Positions 49,133 through 56,620 of a stretch of 64,000 nucleotides of DNA are shown piece after piece (positions within the stretch are counted from its first letter, which is position 1; each line of letters opens with the position of its first letter). This stretch comes from Candidatus Marinacidobacterales bacterium. GTDB taxonomy: Bacteria; Acidobacteriota; Vicinamibacteria; Marinacidobacterales; SMYC01. The DNA lies in assembly GCA_965237955.1 (NCBI GenBank), contig OZ250169.1, positions 6,624,001-6,688,000 of the forward strand, given 5' to 3'. The notes under the pieces are model-generated. The model was not told the DNA's origin, did not search any database, and was given only the letters and a program-made list of their open reading frames with translations. The position numbers and the translations under genes were made by a program.

Positions 49133-49336
49133 ATGGGATACGTGACAAAGCTGCAGGTGATCAAGCGAGCCAACGACACCCGTCAGTTCTATGTGATTTG
49201 CCCGTCACCTTTAGCCCAGGCGCTAGAGATGGAGCCGGGCGAGGAGCTGGAGTGGGTGGTGGAGGATCGAAACACACTGATTGTGCGTCGGACGCCTAAG
49301 GCAAAGCGTGGGAGGAAGCGGGGTAAACGTGGGTGA
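49133..49336 (+). CDS. Small AbrB/SpoVT-like DNA-binding protein carried by the IS1182 element
   Basis: MGYVTKLQVIKR...QFYVICPSPLAQALEMEPGEELEWVVED; promoter TTGACT-18-TAGAGT. Confidence 0.7.
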   Translation: MGYVTKLQVIKRANDTRQFYVICPSPLAQALEMEPGEELEWVVEDRNTLIVRRTPKAKRGRKRGKRG

Positions 49337-49899
49337 TAAGCAAACGTCACTTCCAGGCTTTCCGAGTCCGCGAAAACGCAGCGATGGTGATGACGGCGAT
49401 GAGGGAGCGCGCGTGACACAAGCTCGGTTGAAGGTGGTCGATAGGGCGCAGCTGCTGCTGCGGACGGTCGACGTGGAGCGTTTGATCCCAGAGGATCACC
49501 CAGCGCGTGCGATCTGGGAGTTCGTGGGTCGGCCGGATCTCAGCGGGTACACGGATCAAGTCCGCTCGGTCGCGGGTGGCGCAGGCCGGCCTGCGTTTGA
49601 TCCTCAGCTACTGGTGAGCCTGTGGGTCTACAGCTACAGCCAAGCCGTGAGTTCGGCCCGCGCGGTTGAGCGGCTGTGCGAACATCATCCGGCGTATCAA
49701 TGGCTCAGCGGAATGCAGAGCATCAGTGCGCACACGCTGTCGGACATTCGGATGATTCATAGGGAGATCCTGGACGAGTTGTTTGTGCAAGCTCTGGGAG
49801 TTCTGAGTTCGGACGGATTGATCACGCTCGAGCGAGTCATGCTGGATGGGACGAAGGTGCGCGCGAACGCTTCGTCGAGTGGATTTCGCCGCAAGCCGA

Positions 49900-51344
49900 G
49901 GAGATGCCCCTGAGATAGTTGAAGGTTAGGAGTGGCGGCTCCTAAGGCCGGGTTCGATAGAATCCGGCTGTGAAGGAAAAAGAAAGGAGCCACCACGATG
50001 TCAAATTACCAAATCATCGATGCGAAGAACAGGAAGAAGCTTCGAGAGATACTGAGCTCGAAGGGGCAAGCTCTGTTGCCGTTCTTGGATGCGATTGAGC
50101 GAACCGAGATAGCGATCGACGAAGTGATCGACGTTGCTGGCCGAGCGACGATCGAAGCGGTCTTGGATCTGTCAGCCCAAAGTGTGGCTGGGGAGAAACA
50201 CCCGGGGAAGAAGGGTAGCGATGTTCGCTGGCACGGCCGGCAGGGTGGCGTAGTAAGCCTTGCGGAGCGGAAGTTGAGAGTGAGCCGGCCACGTCTGCGG
50301 CGTAAGGGAAAGGCAGAGGGAGGGGAGGTTGCGATTCCTGCCTACGAAGCGGTGAACAACTCGTCTCGGCTGAGCCAACGCATCTGGGAAATCCTGATGC
50401 TGGGTGTGTCGACGCGCAAGTACGCGTCGGTTCTTCCCGAGATGGCGGAGACGGTAGGGGTTAGCAAGAGCGAGGTGAGCCGTGAGTTCGTGGAAGCAAG
50501 CGCGGAGCAGTTGCAGGGGCTGATGGAGCGTCCGCTGGACGAGCTGGAGATCGCGGTCGTGTACCTGGACGGGATTCGCTTCGGCGAGCACCACGCGCTG
50601 GCGGCAATCGGCGTAGATACAGAGGGATACAAGCATGTTCTGGGGCTTCGGGATGGAGCATCGGAGAACCAGATAGTGTGCAAGGCGCTGCTGGAGGACC
50701 TGGTCGAACGAGGCCTGAGCCCAGAGCGGTGTCGGCTGTTCGTGATCGATGGCTCCAAGGCGCTACGGGTCGCCGTCGACGCTGTGTTCGGTACCCACAA
50801 CAAGGTCCAGCGTTGCAGGAAGCACAAGGAGCGCAATGTGCTCGGTTATCTGCCGCAGGAGCTGAAGCCGCAAGTGCAAGCGAGCCTGCGTTCGGCCTGG
50901 CAGCTCCCAGCAAAGAAGGGCAAAGCGCGGTTGGAGCAACAGGCGAAGTGGCTCGAGGACGACTACCCCTCGGCGGCGGAGAGCATCCGGGAGGGGCTCG
51001 ACGAGATGTTCACCATCAACGAGCTCGACCTCCCCGCATCTCTGAAACGCTGCCTTGGATCGACGAACATCATCGAGTCGTGCTTCAGCGGTGCGCGAGG
51101 TCGTACCCGTCGCGTCACCCGCTGGCGCAATGGCAAGATGGTTCTGAGATGGGCCGCTTCGGCTCTGCTCGCCACGGAGAAAAATTTCCGTCGTATCATT
51201 GGATACCAATCGCTACCGATCCTCGAAGCGAAGTTAGCGGAGGTCACTGAGAATCAAGCGCTCGACAAGCACGCCAAAGTCGGGTAAACCATGTGTCAGG
51301 AGCCGCCACCACCTCGAACCTCCAACTATGCTGGGGGCACCTCC
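49900..51344 (+). mobile_element. IS256-family element, copy 2 (1445 bp, 8-bp TSD CAAGCCGA)
   Basis: Near-identical to copy 1; TSD at 49892-49899 and 51345-51352. Confidence 0.95.
49998..51287 (+). CDS. IS256-family transposase
   Basis: 429 aa; two aa differences from copy 1 (H4Y, FGVHH/FGEHH). Confidence 0.95.
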   Translation: MSNYQIIDAKNRKKLREILSSKGQALLPFLDAIERTEIAIDEVIDVAGRATIEAVLDLSAQSVAGEKHPGKKGSDVRWHGRQGGVVSLAERKLRVSRPRLRRKGKAEGGEVAIPAYEAVNNSSRLSQRIWEILMLGVSTRKYASVLPEMAETVGVSKSEVSREFVEASAEQLQGLMERPLDELEIAVVYLDGIRFGEHHALAAIGVDTEGYKHVLGLRDGASENQIVCKALLEDLVERGLSPERCRLFVIDGSKALRVAVDAVFGTHNKVQRCRKHKERNVLGYLPQELKPQVQASLRSAWQLPAKKGKARLEQQAKWLEDDYPSAAESIREGLDEMFTINELDLPASLKRCLGSTNIIESCFSGARGRTRRVTRWRNGKMVLRWAASALLATEKNFRRIIGYQSLPILEAKLAEVTENQALDKHAKVG

Positions 51345-53436
51345 CAAGCCGACGGTCGAAGAGTGTCTGGAGCAGGCGCGTGAGGCGGTAGAGACTCTCA
51401 ACGCCCAGACGGAGGAGGAATCGAGCCGGCAGATGCAGGCAGCGCAGCAACGCGCCAGGCGAGAGAGACAGGATCGTCTAGAATCAGCGTTGAAGGAGTA
51501 TGACAAGCTGAAAGCCGCGAAAAGCCGCATAGACCGCGTGAGCACGACCGATCCCGACGCGCGGGTGATGAAGCAAGCCGAGGGCGGCTCCGCACCTAAC
51601 TACAACGTCCAAGTCTCAACGGATGCCGCACACGGCCTGATTGTCGACATCGATGCCACGCAGGCCGGTAGCGATTATCAGCAGCTGACGCCGGCCATAG
51701 AACGGATTGAGCAGAGCATGCAGCGTGCGCCCGAGCAGATGGTCGTAGATGGAGGCTACATTAGTAGCAACAACATCGCGGAGATGGCGAAGCGCGGCAT
51801 CGATCTCGTCGGCCCCGACCACGAGAACAAGGCAGCAGAGGCCAATCGGCGCAAGTCGTATAAGCACCACGGCGTGAAAGCGGAATACGAGGCGTCGAAG
51901 TTTGTCTTCGATACGCAGACCAACATGTATGTGTGCCCGCAGGGCAAGCACTTACGCTACGACGCCAAGCAGGAAAGCCATGGCACGATGCGCTATCGAT
52001 ATAAGGCGTCTAAGCAAGACTGCCAGACGTGTCCGGCCAAAGAGCAGTGTTGTCCTCGTACGCAGCACGGCCGCTCGATCGAGCGGCGCGAACTCTTGCC
52101 CGACATAGCCGCGTTCCGGAAGAAGATGCAGACCGACGAAGCCAAGGCCATCTATAAGACACGCTCGCAGGTGGCCGAGTTTCCGAATCTCTGGATCAAA
52201 ACCAAGTTCGGCCTGCGGCAGTTTAGCGTGCGCGGAGTCGCCAAAGTGCGCATTGAATCTCTGTGGGTCGCCCTCACCTACGATATCTTGCAGTGGATTC
52301 GCCTCCGCTGGAGGCCGAAGATGGTATCGACACTCGTGCCGACGTGAGCGCGTTGAGCACACGCAGCCCGACTTGTTAAAGCGCTAGCAATACGCACCAA
52401 CGAAACGCCGATACGATATCGGGTGAATCCGTACCGCGCGGACCCGACCCCCTAGTTGACAGAAGTGTGGACCAACCATCCCCATCTCCCTTGGGAAACG
52501 CGATTTTTTCTCACGTCCGGAGTCACCCTCGGCGAGGAAGCGCTTCACGTCATCGAGCTCCGGTGCCTCGCCACTCGGAGACTCTCCAGCCAGAATCGAC
52601 TCTTGCGCGTACGAGTCCAATACCTTGCGGACCAGTTTTTGGAACAGCTCGTGCGATCCGTAGACGTCCGCGCCGACGAGCTCACCGTCGATGGCAACCA
52701 CGACACCGATGGCGTCGTCGTGTGCAACCACTTGCGGCAAGAGAATCTCGACGTAGTCCGCACGCTTGGCCTTGAGCGTCTCGTTGTCGACGATCGCGCT
52801 ATAAGTGCCGGAGGCGGACAAGCTCGGAGACGGCGCCGCCACGTAGGTCGCAACTTGCGCCTCGGTCTCGGCAACCGCGTTCCAGACGCCCCGCTGGCTT
52901 TGCTCGGCCTGGATGGTTCTTTTGAGCGCCGCGCCGCTCACCATGGCGTCGCTCAGTGAGAACGCCATGCCACTGGCGCCGTCCGCCGCCCACCGGCCGT
53001 GCTCGACACAAAACGCGTCGATGGTGACCGGCGTCGACCGCGGCGGAAGAACGACATCGGTGGCGATGGTGCGGTCCTGCTTACCGCCGCGGATGACGTC
53101 GCCAACGTGAAGGAACAGAAACTCGTCGGAGCCGTTCTCGACCTCGAGCGTGTTGACCTCGCCGCTCCCGCGCTCGCGGACTTTGACGGCCCCGCTCTTC
53201 AAACCTTCGTCGAGAGTGATGTAGGACCGCGTGTCAGCCTGCGGACCGTGCACCACGTAGACCGCGAGCTTCCCGTGAGTGTAGGGTCCTTCGACTTTCG
53301 GGGGCGCCATGATCAGAAACGCCGCTAGGACAGAAATAGAGTGCATGATTTCCTCCCGGGCGGCGGCGCTCTCTGGAGTATAGACACACGCCCCGCCTCA
53401 AAGGTCCTACTTCGGGAGGAGGGAGATTATTCCCTA

Positions 53437-54619
53437 GTCCCCTGGAACAGAAAAAGCTAGACAACACCGGCCCTTCTGTGATCTGCTAAATGCATGAAAC
53501 ACAAGGGCCGGCGAAAAGCCGAATTGAAGCTGTCGTCTCAAGAAAGCGAAGCGCTGACGCGACTGGCGCGACGCAGCCGTAGTTCGCCGCACCAAGCCTT
53601 CCGAGCGAAGATCGTGCTGGATTGCGCGGCGGGTCTGACGAATATGGAAGTTGCTAGGAAGATGCACACCATGAGGAGCACGGTGGGCAAGTGGCGAAGA
53701 CGCTTTGTAGAACAACGAATGGAAGGGTTGTACGACGAACCTCGGCCGGGAGCGGCTCGCAAAATCGGCGATGACCAGATCGAGGAAGTCGTGACCAAGA
53801 CGCTGGAGACGACTCCAAAGGGGAGAACCCATTGGAGTACGCGCTCGATGGCCAAGCATCTTGGGCTGAGTCATTCGACGATTGGACGTATTTGGCGAAC
53901 GTTCGGGCTTCAACCGCACCGCTCGGAATCGTTTCGTCTCTCGCAAGACCCACAACTGGTCGAAAAAGTACGCGACGTTGTTGGCCTGTATATGAACCCA
54001 CCGGATAACGCGGTCGTCCTGTGCGTCGACGAGAAATCGCAGATTCAAGCGCTCGAGCGTGCTCAACCTGTCCTGCCCATGAGCTTGGGCCAGCCCGAGC
54101 GACAAACCCACGACTACATTCGGCATGGAACGACTGACCTGTTTGCCGCACTCGACGCCGCAACAGGTGAAGTCTTCGGAAAGTGCTACGCGCGACATCG
54201 AGCGCTAGAGTTCAAGAAGTTCCTCGCTGAGATCGAAGCAGCCGTTCCCAGCGAGTTGGACATCCACGTCGTGCTCGACAATCTCGCCACGCACAAGACA
54301 CCGGCGATCAAACGCTGGCTTTCCAAGCGACCTCGGTTCCACTTTCACTTCACACCGACACACGCCTCTTGGCTCAACTTCGCTGAGCGCTTCTTTGGCT
54401 TGCTCACCGAACACGCCTTGCGACGAGGCTCGCACACGAGCGTGCCTCAGCTCCGCGTTGCGATACAAGACTATCTCGATGCTCACAACGAGAACCCAAA
54501 GCCGTTCAAGTGGACGAAATCCGCCGACCAAATCCTCGAAACCATCGCTCGGTTCGCCCAGCGAACGCTCGATACACATGGCAAATCGAATTTGGACAGT
54601 AATTAAAGATCCGGGGGAC
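53437..54619 (+). mobile_element. IS630-family element (TA duplication)
   Basis: Ends TA-GTCCCCTGGA / TCCGGGGGAC-TA. Confidence 0.88.
53494..54606 (+). CDS. IS630-family transposase
   Basis: [42 protein letters not shown]. Confidence 0.95.
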
Positions 54620-54657
54620 TAGGGAATGGGAACCAGCCGCTCGAGCTCGTCGAACCA
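54619..54657 (-). pseudogene. Displaced original 3' tail of the kinase/propeller gene (WFDELERLVPIP*)
   Basis: 13 codons that continue ...VVLN from 56250 if the IS110 is removed. Confidence 0.7.
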
Positions 54658-54677
54658 GGATCGAAAAACATCTATCG

Positions 54678-55955
54678 TCATGCTGGATCTCCCCGTAGAG
54701 AAGGCTCGATGTGATATCCGAGTTTGCGCAGGTCGCGGATCATATTGGCAATGCGTCGTTTGGAGCGCGCGCGGCTAACGTCGGGGCCACGTTCCTCATA
54801 GTCAACGCCCTGGTGGAGAATCTTCCAGATTAAACGACACAACCGATGGGCAACGGCCCAGATGGCTTGCGCGTGCCCCAGGCGTGGAACCAACCGCCGG
54901 TACACGAGCTGGAAGAAACTCCCTTTGGTCTTGACGGCCGCGTTGGCGGCTTGATTGAGGAGGCGGCGCATCGGCCGACTGCCTTTGGGCGAGCGATGGC
55001 TGTAGCTTTTGCCGGCGCTTTCGTGCTCTCCGGGGCACACGCCCACCCAGGACGCGAGGTGCTTGGCCGACGGAAACGTCTCGGCGCTCGCCCCGACTTC
55101 CGCGATGATCTGCTGCGCCGAATCCACGCCGAGCCCAGGCACTTCAGCGAGTCGTTGCACAGCTGCTTGATGCTCGCCGAGCAGATGCGCCATCTCTTCA
55201 TCGAGTTGCGCGCTCTGCTCTTCGAGCAATCGTAATTCCTCGAGCGTCATTTGCACGAGCTTCCGATAGACGGGGTTGAGATCGGCACACGCGCCGAGCG
55301 CATCGCACAACTGCTCGGGCGTGGCACGCAATCGACGGTCGGCCAACTCCGCCAAGCGGGCCGGCTCCGTTTCCCCGTCCGCCAAGGCTTGCAACATCCG
55401 CCGCGCACTCAGCCCCAGAAGATCCGACACCAGGCTCGACAACTTTAGATGCGCTTCCTCCAGCAACGACTCTAGGCGGTTTTGGAGCTGAACCCGGTTA
55501 CGCGTGAACTGGTACTTGCGGCGCATCACCGTTCGCCACAGGCGCTGCTCCGGCTCGGGAACGAAGCTTAGAGTCAGCTCCTGCGCCACCAAACGCTTCA
55601 CCAATCGTTCGGCATCCGGAAAATCCCGCTTCCGACCCCGCGCGCCGCGATTCGACTTTGCTTGCGCCAGATGCAAGTTGCCCGACTGCGCACCCGCGCC
55701 CGGCCGAGCTCGGCACTGCGGAGCCCAGGACCGCTCCAACGCCTCCCACACCGGGCGCCAATATTGCGCGGTCGATTCCATCACTACTTCATCGACCCCC
55801 TCGGCCACCAGCCACTCCGCCAGAGCCCGAAGCTCACTCGGTCTCGTGCCCACACGCCGGCGCGAAAACTTATACTCACCCTCTACTGCGATGTCGGCGA
55901 CCACCACCGCCAGCATCTTCTTGTGAACGTCTATCCCAGCAATCCGGTTTGGCAT
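54678..55955 (-). CDS. IS110-family recombinase/transposase
   Basis: GIDVHK, MESTAQYW, RKRDFPDA (DEDD RuvC-like), VPGLG, SWVGVCPG..ESAG (catalytic Ser); SD GAGGAGG. Confidence 0.95.
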   Translation of the reverse strand: MPNRIAGIDVHKKMLAVVVADIAVEGEYKFSRRRVGTRPSELRALAEWLVAEGVDEVVMESTAQYWRPVWEALERSWAPQCRARPGAGAQSGNLHLAQAKSNRGARGRKRDFPDAERLVKRLVAQELTLSFVPEPEQRLWRTVMRRKYQFTRNRVQLQNRLESLLEEAHLKLSSLVSDLLGLSARRMLQALADGETEPARLAELADRRLRATPEQLCDALGACADLNPVYRKLVQMTLEELRLLEEQSAQLDEEMAHLLGEHQAAVQRLAEVPGLGVDSAQQIIAEVGASAETFPSAKHLASWVGVCPGEHESAGKSYSHRSPKGSRPMRRLLNQAANAAVKTKGSFFQLVYRRLVPRLGHAQAIWAVAHRLCRLIWKILHQGVDYEERGPDVSRARSKRRIANMIRDLRKLGYHIEPSLRGDPA

Positions 55956-55964
55956 CGCTCCTCC

Positions 55965-56170
55965 TCATCGCCGCAGCGGAGCGCGTGCTAATCAACTTCA
56001 TTAATCAGGATCTCAGGCTCGCACCGTGGACAAAGCGCTCACGGCGACGCCTACTTATTCGCTCTACCAACGCACACGCCGGATCAGCCAGTTGAACGGT
56101 CTCAACGGCCCCACTGGTTCGTCGATCTCACCGCTCCGGACCGCACCAGTCTGCCTTAACCGGAAATGTT
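55965..56170 (-). ncRNA. Candidate IS110 bridge RNA
   Basis: Structured non-coding end containing CGAACCAG (56121-56114) and TCAACTGG (56095-56088), which match the insertion site, and GATCCTG (56012-56006), complementary to the element end. Confidence 0.7.
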
Positions 56171-56210
56171 TTTCATGTTCTTTCGCGAGCTGCGTCCATC
56201 ACATCCCCAC

Positions 56211-56360
56211 TCAATTCACCGGAACCAGCCTAAGCAGCTCTTCGTGCCAGTTGAGCACGACGTTTATCTGCTCGGTCGGTCGCTCGACGCGGAGCATGAG
56301 AAAGCGCTGACCGTCCGCGCTCACGTCGTAGTCCGGCGGATTGACAGTTGCTCGGGGCGA
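56211..56360 (-). pseudogene. 3' remnant of a Ser/Thr kinase-TolB-like beta-propeller gene
   Basis: YDVSADGQRFLMLR...INVVLNWHEELLRLVPVN*. Confidence 0.75.
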
Positions 56361-56620
56361 TCGGTTGTCGCGGAAAGAACCTCGACAATTAGACAGGGGC
56401 GCTCCTTGAAGTAAGACTCCCGGTCATCGGAATCGCAAGTGACGAATACGTCCGGATAGTAGTAGACGTCGGCCGCTCGGACGCGGACCTTCATGTCCGC
56501 CATGAAAACACGACAAGGCCGACCGCGGAGGTGCTCGCGGAGTCCGGATGCGATGTTCAAAGAGATGATCTCCTGGACCAGGTGCTCGTCGCGCACTCGC
56601 TCGAGAGATGGATCTCCCAG
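56360..56620 (-). pseudogene. Truncated Uma2-family endonuclease
   Basis: ISLNIAS..RPCRVFMADMKVR..YYYPDVFVTC..PCLIVEVLSATTDR, then lost. Confidence 0.75.

Follow-up and report, generated by a model that had tools for sequence, protein, structure and literature searches.

Mobile elements that supply a replacement end for the gene they enter include SXT/R391 at prfC and e14 and phage 21 at icd. The bridge recombinases of the IS621/IS110 group (PMC11208160; 10.1101/2024.01.24.577089; PMC13626964) are insertion sequences (IS) that, going by the accessible text of these reports, combine a DEDD and Tnp recombinase with a long left end encoding a two-loop RNA, a short right end and a 2-nt core. Here we describe an IS110 element in the window, the whole 64,000-nucleotide stretch of DNA that was analysed (G000:C1:6624001-6688000, G000 being the genome from which it comes). 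Very probably this element, directed by a predicted guide RNA, inserts at the Trp codon of a VVLN-W motif and completes the gene that it cuts with a 12-residue tail of its own, likely keeping the host gene working.

The element shares all of the above features with IS621 and also the handshake dinucleotide of the RNA, which matches the donor after exchange, a rule described for IS621 in the available text of that report (PMC13626964). It differs from IS621, as portrayed there, in its core, which is TG instead of CT, in its first target guide, which reads the downstream flank on the opposite strand, and in that no left-end guide was found beyond the handshake. Its left end is protein-coding for the host, and its target is a coding motif instead of a REP-type repeat. 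Targeting of conserved codons in a protein-coding gene family by an IS110-group RNA is known from ISEc21, which is directed to the DDE motif's second D in IS3 transposases (10.1101/2024.04.26.591405); ISEc21 inserts in mid-gene and the accessible part of that preprint describes no replacement sequence, whereas the present insertion lies 12 codons before the end of the gene and replaces that end. The dusA-associated integrase islands (PMC4482086) carry a diverged replacement gene end with the original end at the far boundary, and an in-frame homologue of the displaced gene end is likewise carried here. Those islands, as outlined in the available text of that article, are large, protein-guided by tyrosine integrases and confined to one single-copy gene, whereas the present element is a 1.6-kb, predicted RNA-guided IS in a multi-copy paralogue family whose 39-bp tail is also the donor site, and its only enzyme is the IS110 recombinase, with no tyrosine or serine integrase acting on attP/attB. 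IStrons (PMC13521648) are likewise IS that spare the gene they enter; in the accessible account they do so by self-splicing of the RNA, whereas the replacement codons here are encoded in DNA. One-sided (half-matched) boundaries have been reported for IS110 loci by Hu et al. (10.64898/2026.08.14.744561), the main text of which lacks 'restor', 'host gene', 'in-frame', 'C-terminal' and 'intragenic'. An IS110 end that completes its target gene was not found in the literature searched (including 10.64898/2026.10.21.760802), mostly open-access main texts; a passing mention may exist elsewhere.

The tail and its association with the element

The main parts of the locus are as follows, in window coordinates and with an asterisk for a stop codon.

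54658..56249, minus strand: IS110 element of 1,592 bp, starting with the left TG core and ending at the base in front of the right TG core (54659-56250 in an earlier note on this DNA)
56211..56249, minus strand: element-borne replacement tail WHEELLRLVPVN*, containing the TG core, the handshake bases GC and the stop codon
54619..54657, minus strand: displaced original host tail WFDELERLVPIP*, which differs among all seven sites in G000
56250..56330, minus strand: 3′ remnant (YDVSADG...VVLN) of a kinase/TolB-like propeller gene, its frame continuing into the element tail
54678..55955, minus strand: IS110 DEDD recombinase of 425 amino acids (aa) (PF01548, PF02371; NF033542 at 211.5 bits, cut-off 140)
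54658..54677, minus strand: short right end terminating in TTTTTCGATCC, from comparison of copies and relatives

The two minus-strand tails of 13 codons described in the earlier note lie where it placed them, WHEELLRLVPVN at 56249-56211 and WFDELERLVPIP at 54657-54619. The synonymous (CTG/CTC, AGG/CGG, CCG/CCC) and conservative (E/D, V/I) differences that it named are correct, the non-conservative ones being H/F, L/E and N/P, and deletion of 54659-56250 yields VVLNWFDELERLVPIP* as it had claimed. The tails do begin at a common core, and the CCAG given in that note can be refined; what the family as a whole shares is the TG (CA on the plus strand) that lies inside it. TG is repeated at the right end in 69 of 71 junctions, the TG of the left end being given by construction of the call. 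A CT core was the first reading and was dropped, since the family fits TG better. Assignment to IS110 is supported by the DEDD RuvC-like domain (PF01548) and the Transposase_20 domain (PF02371), and the ends show the asymmetry of the IS110 type, with a left end of 294 bp, of which the first 39 bp code for the host, and a right end of ~20 bp. Residues D9, E60, D111, D114 and S313, read from the recombinase sequence, presumably form the catalytic motif.

G000 holds ten copies of the element, 99.5-100% identical and with the same ends, at seven sites, four of the copies forming a tandem array at 5,882,415-5,889,015. All eight intact left ends open with the identical 39 bases encoding WHEELLRLVPVN*, with differing sequence upstream, so that the observation is not one of chance. 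The remaining two copies begin at element base 53 (in the array, with the tail absent) and at base 299. The displaced tails are of the family type at all seven sites, one being degenerate; they read WFQELERLVPTK*, WFQELERLVPTN* and WFEELKRLVPTDN* at three sites, and WSQGLDRRVPRSQ* (the degenerate one), WFDELERLVPTR*, WFEELKRLVPAP* and WFDELERLVPIP* at the other four. In a second genome, G229, there are seven copies, two of them with identical flanks, and all seven carry the tail WHQELLERVPVP*. The expectation of a tail that moves along with the element, next to upstream genes and displaced tails that vary, is thus borne out at 8/8 intact left ends in G000, in 7/7 copies of G229 and in 46/55 element types. 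Two short-read runs, which may include the source sample, gave a unitig of 1,605 nt spanning 54650-56254 (run X1) and a tail-covering unitig at a depth of 185 against 27.5 for unique flank (run X2).

The element types come from a pattern search with the target loop alone, which contains no tail sequence. This gave 66 metagenome loci and matched 10 of 401 class genomes, with none for the reversed control. In all 85 loci were analysed (66 + 11 + 8, two found twice); 73 with a callable left end were grouped into 55 types at 95% identity and 12 were dropped. A 13-codon tail of the form WxxELxxxVPxx* (12 residues) is carried by 46 types and a short tail (WHPERGK*, WRPEHGK*, WQETLKK* or WQAALGAR..*) by eight, and one has neither. 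The guides of the short-tail types are different, and the tails displaced by these types are short, for example WKPPTK*, WTAGLKK* and WTEELKKS*; exceptions are L140, a short-tail type with a long displaced tail, and several long-tail types with short displaced tails. Upstream, an in-frame [VILF][VILFT]xN is found in 62 of the 73 flanks, and W..[ED][LI] fits 39 of the 49 displaced flanks.

The 44 distinct tail sequences correspond to 35 peptides, in which W1, E4, L5, V9, P10 and the stop are invariant, while every one of the four codons is used for V and for P, and each of the three stop codons occurs. In the tail frame the ratio of nonsynonymous to synonymous differences (pN/pS) is 0.53, which gives a Jukes-Cantor corrected substitution ratio (dN/dS) of 0.36, compared with pN/pS of 1.3 and 1.0 in the other two frames. 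Parsimony on a tree gives a dN/dS of 0.34 for 44 of the 46 types, two being omitted for short sequence. Premature stops occur in none of the 44 tails against 15-19 of 44 in neutral simulation, and four columns are invariant where simulation gave none. Tail distance tracks element distance (rho 0.42, 0 of 2000 permutations). In these counts, as in those on covariation below, kin are not independent. The check on dN/dS suggested in the earlier note therefore came out in favour of purifying selection (0.34-0.36), and coding constraint on the element tail is strongly supported.

Relatives with other targets were found through the transposase, which at 68-86% identity gave 79 loci in GTDB genomes, most of them from Acidobacteriota judging by the record titles. 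Seven of these have guides for the N-W motif and have tails. Parsing succeeded for 70 of the remaining 72, and 63 of those have a head of 20-24 nt between the core and the conserved motif; the seven exceptions look like parse failures. No homologous replacement was seen in the junction-crossing frames of the relatives with other guides, except in a doubtful LDDFRNW group. Plasmids held only distant relatives, below 60% identity (best 37%). In a quick tree, in which the L124 branch is spuriously long, the tail carriers are not resolved as one clade, a pattern compatible with one origin of the tail or several and with more than one order of gain and loss.

Several observations on individual copies and groups stand beside these results. 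The array (G000:C1:5882415-5889015; L015, L007, L017, L011) consists of four slightly different tandem copies. Twice a right end in it is joined to a TG that lies 143 bp upstream of the left end, and once to a TG 51 bp inside it, that is at base 53, with loss of the tail. Two copies, L022 and L023 (G000:C1:5209078-5210670 and 6927340-6928634), have a common 1-bp insertion near the end of the transposase, which consequently reads through the right end and terminates in the displaced host tail. Family gene ends of the WH type with no element directly behind them occur at G000:C1:1421557, 4072045, 6038016 and 7765161, and are possibly native variants or scars of old insertions. In the well-supported sister group targeting LDDFRNW (L027, L043, L050, L051, L063, L065, L073, L074, L082, L089, L090, L094, L096, L101) the target repeat translates as WLxxxDDFRN-W, and heads of 22-24 nt read WLRLGLEARERE against a displaced WLIREAA. 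This group was considered as a second case of a tail and set aside, its upstream frames being short (12-76 codons) and the target only possibly coding. The short-head elements L032, L033, L036, L054, L067, L069, L070, L092 and L100 are inserted antisense in the codons for MLEELQRR[NH]Y near the start of open reading frames (ORFs) of up to ~300 aa, perhaps the N-terminus of tyrosine integrases; no replacement was seen there.

Predicted guides, handshake and probable avoidance of the element's own end

The left end upstream of the recombinase contains the predicted guide RNA and its parts.

56170..56187, minus strand: left-end motif CGCGAAA..ATGAA, conserved family-wide and present in relatives irrespective of target
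55981..56131, minus strand: predicted bridge RNA with target-binding and donor-binding loops, from a two-loop consensus fold (99 sequences) and covariation with the flanks
56115..56123, minus strand: first target guide GACGAACCA, with complementarity to TG-GTTCG of the displaced flank
56087..56096, minus strand: second target guide TTCAACTG with the handshake dinucleotide GC, matching the upstream flank and left-end bases 3-4
56054..56059, minus strand: AATAAG, the 5′ side of the donor loop, which hardly varies and has no complementarity to the left end
56006..56012, minus strand: donor guide GATCCTG, with its match in the right end CGATCC-TG

From an alignment of 99 types a consensus fold with two internal loops was obtained. 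The structure rests on this alignment, because the left end folded as a single sequence does no better than shuffles (z 0.04); Rfam gave no match for the predicted bridge RNA. For covariation, six doubtful left-end calls and the types with an incomplete RNA region were excluded. The second target guide matches the upstream flank in 88-100% of cases at four positions (99 types), the first is complementary to the downstream, displaced flank in 62-82% per position (71 types), and the donor guide matches the variable positions of the right end in 99-100% (72 types). The bases after the second guide match left-end bases 3 and 4 in 91% and 98% (99 types). This handshake rule holds in 53 of 55 types and sets the first base of codon 2, with GC giving H, Q or L, GA giving T, S, M or N, and GT giving F. 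For left-end bases 5-9 no column of the RNA covaries in register (best excess 0.16-0.23), and the second donor guide expected for an IS621-type bridge RNA was not seen. The element works like IS621, yet because only a donor guide for the right end was found it is not filed as IS621-type. It would seem from these alignments that the RNA does not read the left end past base 4, which would likely leave that end free to carry codons. Left-end base 10 is G in 82 of 99 and base 12 in 98 of 99 members whatever the target, and these two bases are possibly read by the protein.

No tail among the 44 of the elements starts WFE or WFD, compared with 44 of 106 host tails, and where tails do start WF the next residue is E or D in 0 of 7 element tails and 44 of 56 host tails. 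The target guide matches 2.6 of 7 bases in the element's own left end against 4.8 of 7 in the displaced flank, the match being lower in 45 of 48 loci. Both comparisons support the suggestion, made for the window copy, that the change of TTC to CAC keeps the element from targeting its own end. The change also has a mechanistic cause, since the handshake guide constrains the first base of codon 2 (53/55).

A consensus sigma-70 promoter was not found in 55900-56330. The head length varies from 20 to 104 nt among relatives, which argues against a fixed promoter at the circle junction. The TAGGCT within the tail was tried as a -10 box and dropped because relatives do not keep it. Contigs from RNA runs cover parts of the element, too weakly to count as expression.

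As far as comparison of sequences goes, the tail belongs to the element, the insertion sites are a motif of the family and the guides covary with the flanks; coding constraint acts on the tail, and none of the tails restores the preferred target.

Host genes and the explanations weighed

The kinase/propeller family has many members (7,388 passed out of 7,998 candidates that were scored), and ~29 empty family ends were counted in G000. Among 120 homologues 106, some of which may themselves be element-completed, end in a [NS]W tail with the same conserved residues as the element tails. The gene that hosts the L195 element encodes a Pkinase + PD40 protein of 895 aa. The AlphaFold model places the insertion point after the last strand (877-882) and before a terminal helix (884-891) that has a confidence score (pLDDT) of ~90-95; Foldseek returned matches to the kinase domain only and none on the tail helix. 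The uninterrupted paralogue P0122, which is 90.5% identical to the L195 host over the last 250 aa, has as its C-terminus exactly the tail displaced at L195 and serves as a stand-in for an empty allele. In G229 four of the seven hosts have full-length frames of 904-939 aa that are completed by the element tail. The remnant in the window (56250..56330) is 53% identical to residues 848-894 of P0121 (tblastn, E 1e-8).

In the mechanism that we propose, the element would be excised as a circle in which the right end is joined to the left end at the TG core, as for IS621 and ISEc21. The RNA would read the right end and the target in both its halves, but of the left end only bases 3-4 (the handshake), and the remainder of the left end would thereby be free as coding sequence. 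Recombination at TG would then put VVLN in frame with the element tail and push the old tail past the right end. Copies in intact genes would be tolerated, and selection on the hybrid genes would maintain the tail. The tail may first have been acquired through the joining of a right end to a left boundary that was non-canonical, as at the junctions of the G000 array; these one-sided junctions seem to be of the kind that would capture or drop a tail.

A number of points weigh against this account. Neither a circle junction (joined ends) nor a true empty allele was found in the contigs of 8 of the 24 listed runs. A dN/dS of ~0.35 is moderate. E4 is always encoded by GAG and, because left-end base 12 is G in 98 of 99 family members, tailed or tailless, it may be fixed at the level of the DNA. 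Ten of the 49 displaced flanks do not fit W..[ED][LI], five being short-tail paralogues and five unrelated or cut off. Full-length hosts make up only 4/7 in G229, and at 12 other loci with at least 1.5 kb upstream there are four full kinases, two frames open at the edge and six short ones. In the window the host gene is a remnant of ~27-35 codons fused to a truncated fragment of the Uma2 family, so this copy itself rescues nothing useful. The fragment is the following.

56321..56596, minus strand: truncated Uma2-family ORF outside the element, abutting the remnant (PF05685, E 6e-14)

Elsewhere in G000 three occupied hosts extend over the whole family length, each interrupted by a single frame break due to decay or assembly error; the other occupied sites are remnants or unrelated sequence, and most empty paralogues likewise have short frames. 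Given such broken and short frames in hosts and paralogues, rescue cannot matter much in G000. The use of the paralogue family as a safe harbour, as the earlier note put it, would have to be squared with the many host genes that are broken anyway. That the hybrid proteins work is likely, the full-length frames, the selection on the tail and the structural model bearing on it indirectly.

The tail could instead be a passive piece of flank, repeatedly recaptured or gene-converted from host paralogues, so that its low dN/dS reflects host history. Capture and loss do happen, as the non-canonical TG junctions of the array (143 bp upstream and 51 bp inside) indicate, native WH-tailed genes without an element remnant exist, and the tail carriers are not one clade in the quick tree. 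Tails nevertheless follow the element tree, with sister elements having the same tail types, and 0 of 44 start with WFE or WFD, the commonest start among hosts (44/106). In 53 of 55 types bases 3-4 agree with the handshake guide, compared with agreement with the displaced host tails in only 5 of 37, and the tail keeps its length of 13 codons while the spacer after the stop varies widely. We consider passive capture improbable. That the tail serves the element alone is just as improbable; here its stop would free ribosomes before the bridge RNA, read-through of the host transcript would express RNA and transposase, and the likeness in amino acids would be a by-product of origin. At every family site the element and the host gene have the same orientation, the element's left end has no consensus promoter, a working bridge RNA of IS621 is obtained through read-through from a flanking gene according to the accessible text of one report (PMC13626964), and the short-tail types with WQAALGAR..* only loosely resemble the tails they displace. 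A stop alone would, however, require neither invariant L, V and P with free third positions nor a dN/dS of 0.34. This role is compatible with completion of the host gene, and both can act together.

The possibility raised in the earlier note that the two tails are neighbouring paralogue ends joined by deletion or recombination, with the element ending near 56200, can be set aside with near certainty. One array copy does start at base 53 without a tail and another copy is cut at base 299. The tail nevertheless follows the core in 8/8 intact copies of G000, 7/7 copies of G229 and 54/55 types, and the identical tail behind different genes had already refuted this explanation. Completion of the cut gene by an element-borne tail is thus the explanation that we favour.

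Surroundings of the element and significance

Close to the element in the window an IS630-family transposase (NF033545; 53494-54606, plus strand) ends just past the displaced tail, and its end recurs dozens of times in G000. Further away, a transposase-like gene at 49281-52347 (plus strand) is apparently split around a transposase-like ORF of 429 aa (49998-51287). A terminator-like hairpin on the plus strand (56242-56260) spans the left junction; it requires bases of the flank and is probably due to chance.

Taken together, it is rather likely that a lineage of RNA-guided IS110 elements gave up reading one of its ends by RNA, turned that end into a spare part coding for protein and colonises a large family of kinase paralogues without destroying them, swapping their C-terminal helices for its own, avoiding itself by choice of codons and changing the spare part when it is retargeted to a short-tail subfamily. 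RNA-guided insertion by IS110 and repair of the target gene in the manner of phages are two known ideas that were not found combined in the literature searched. Their combination accounts for the use of a coding motif by an IS as a landing site with many copies, and the 39 bases under three constraints (core, handshake and protein) make a small test case. Calls of IS110 boundaries can wrongly assign such tails to the flank or to the gene. If the donor loop truly reads only the right end, the clade would be a natural bridge recombinase with a one-sided donor, in which the incoming sequence would be nearly free from base 5, and this would bear on in-frame C-terminal tagging.

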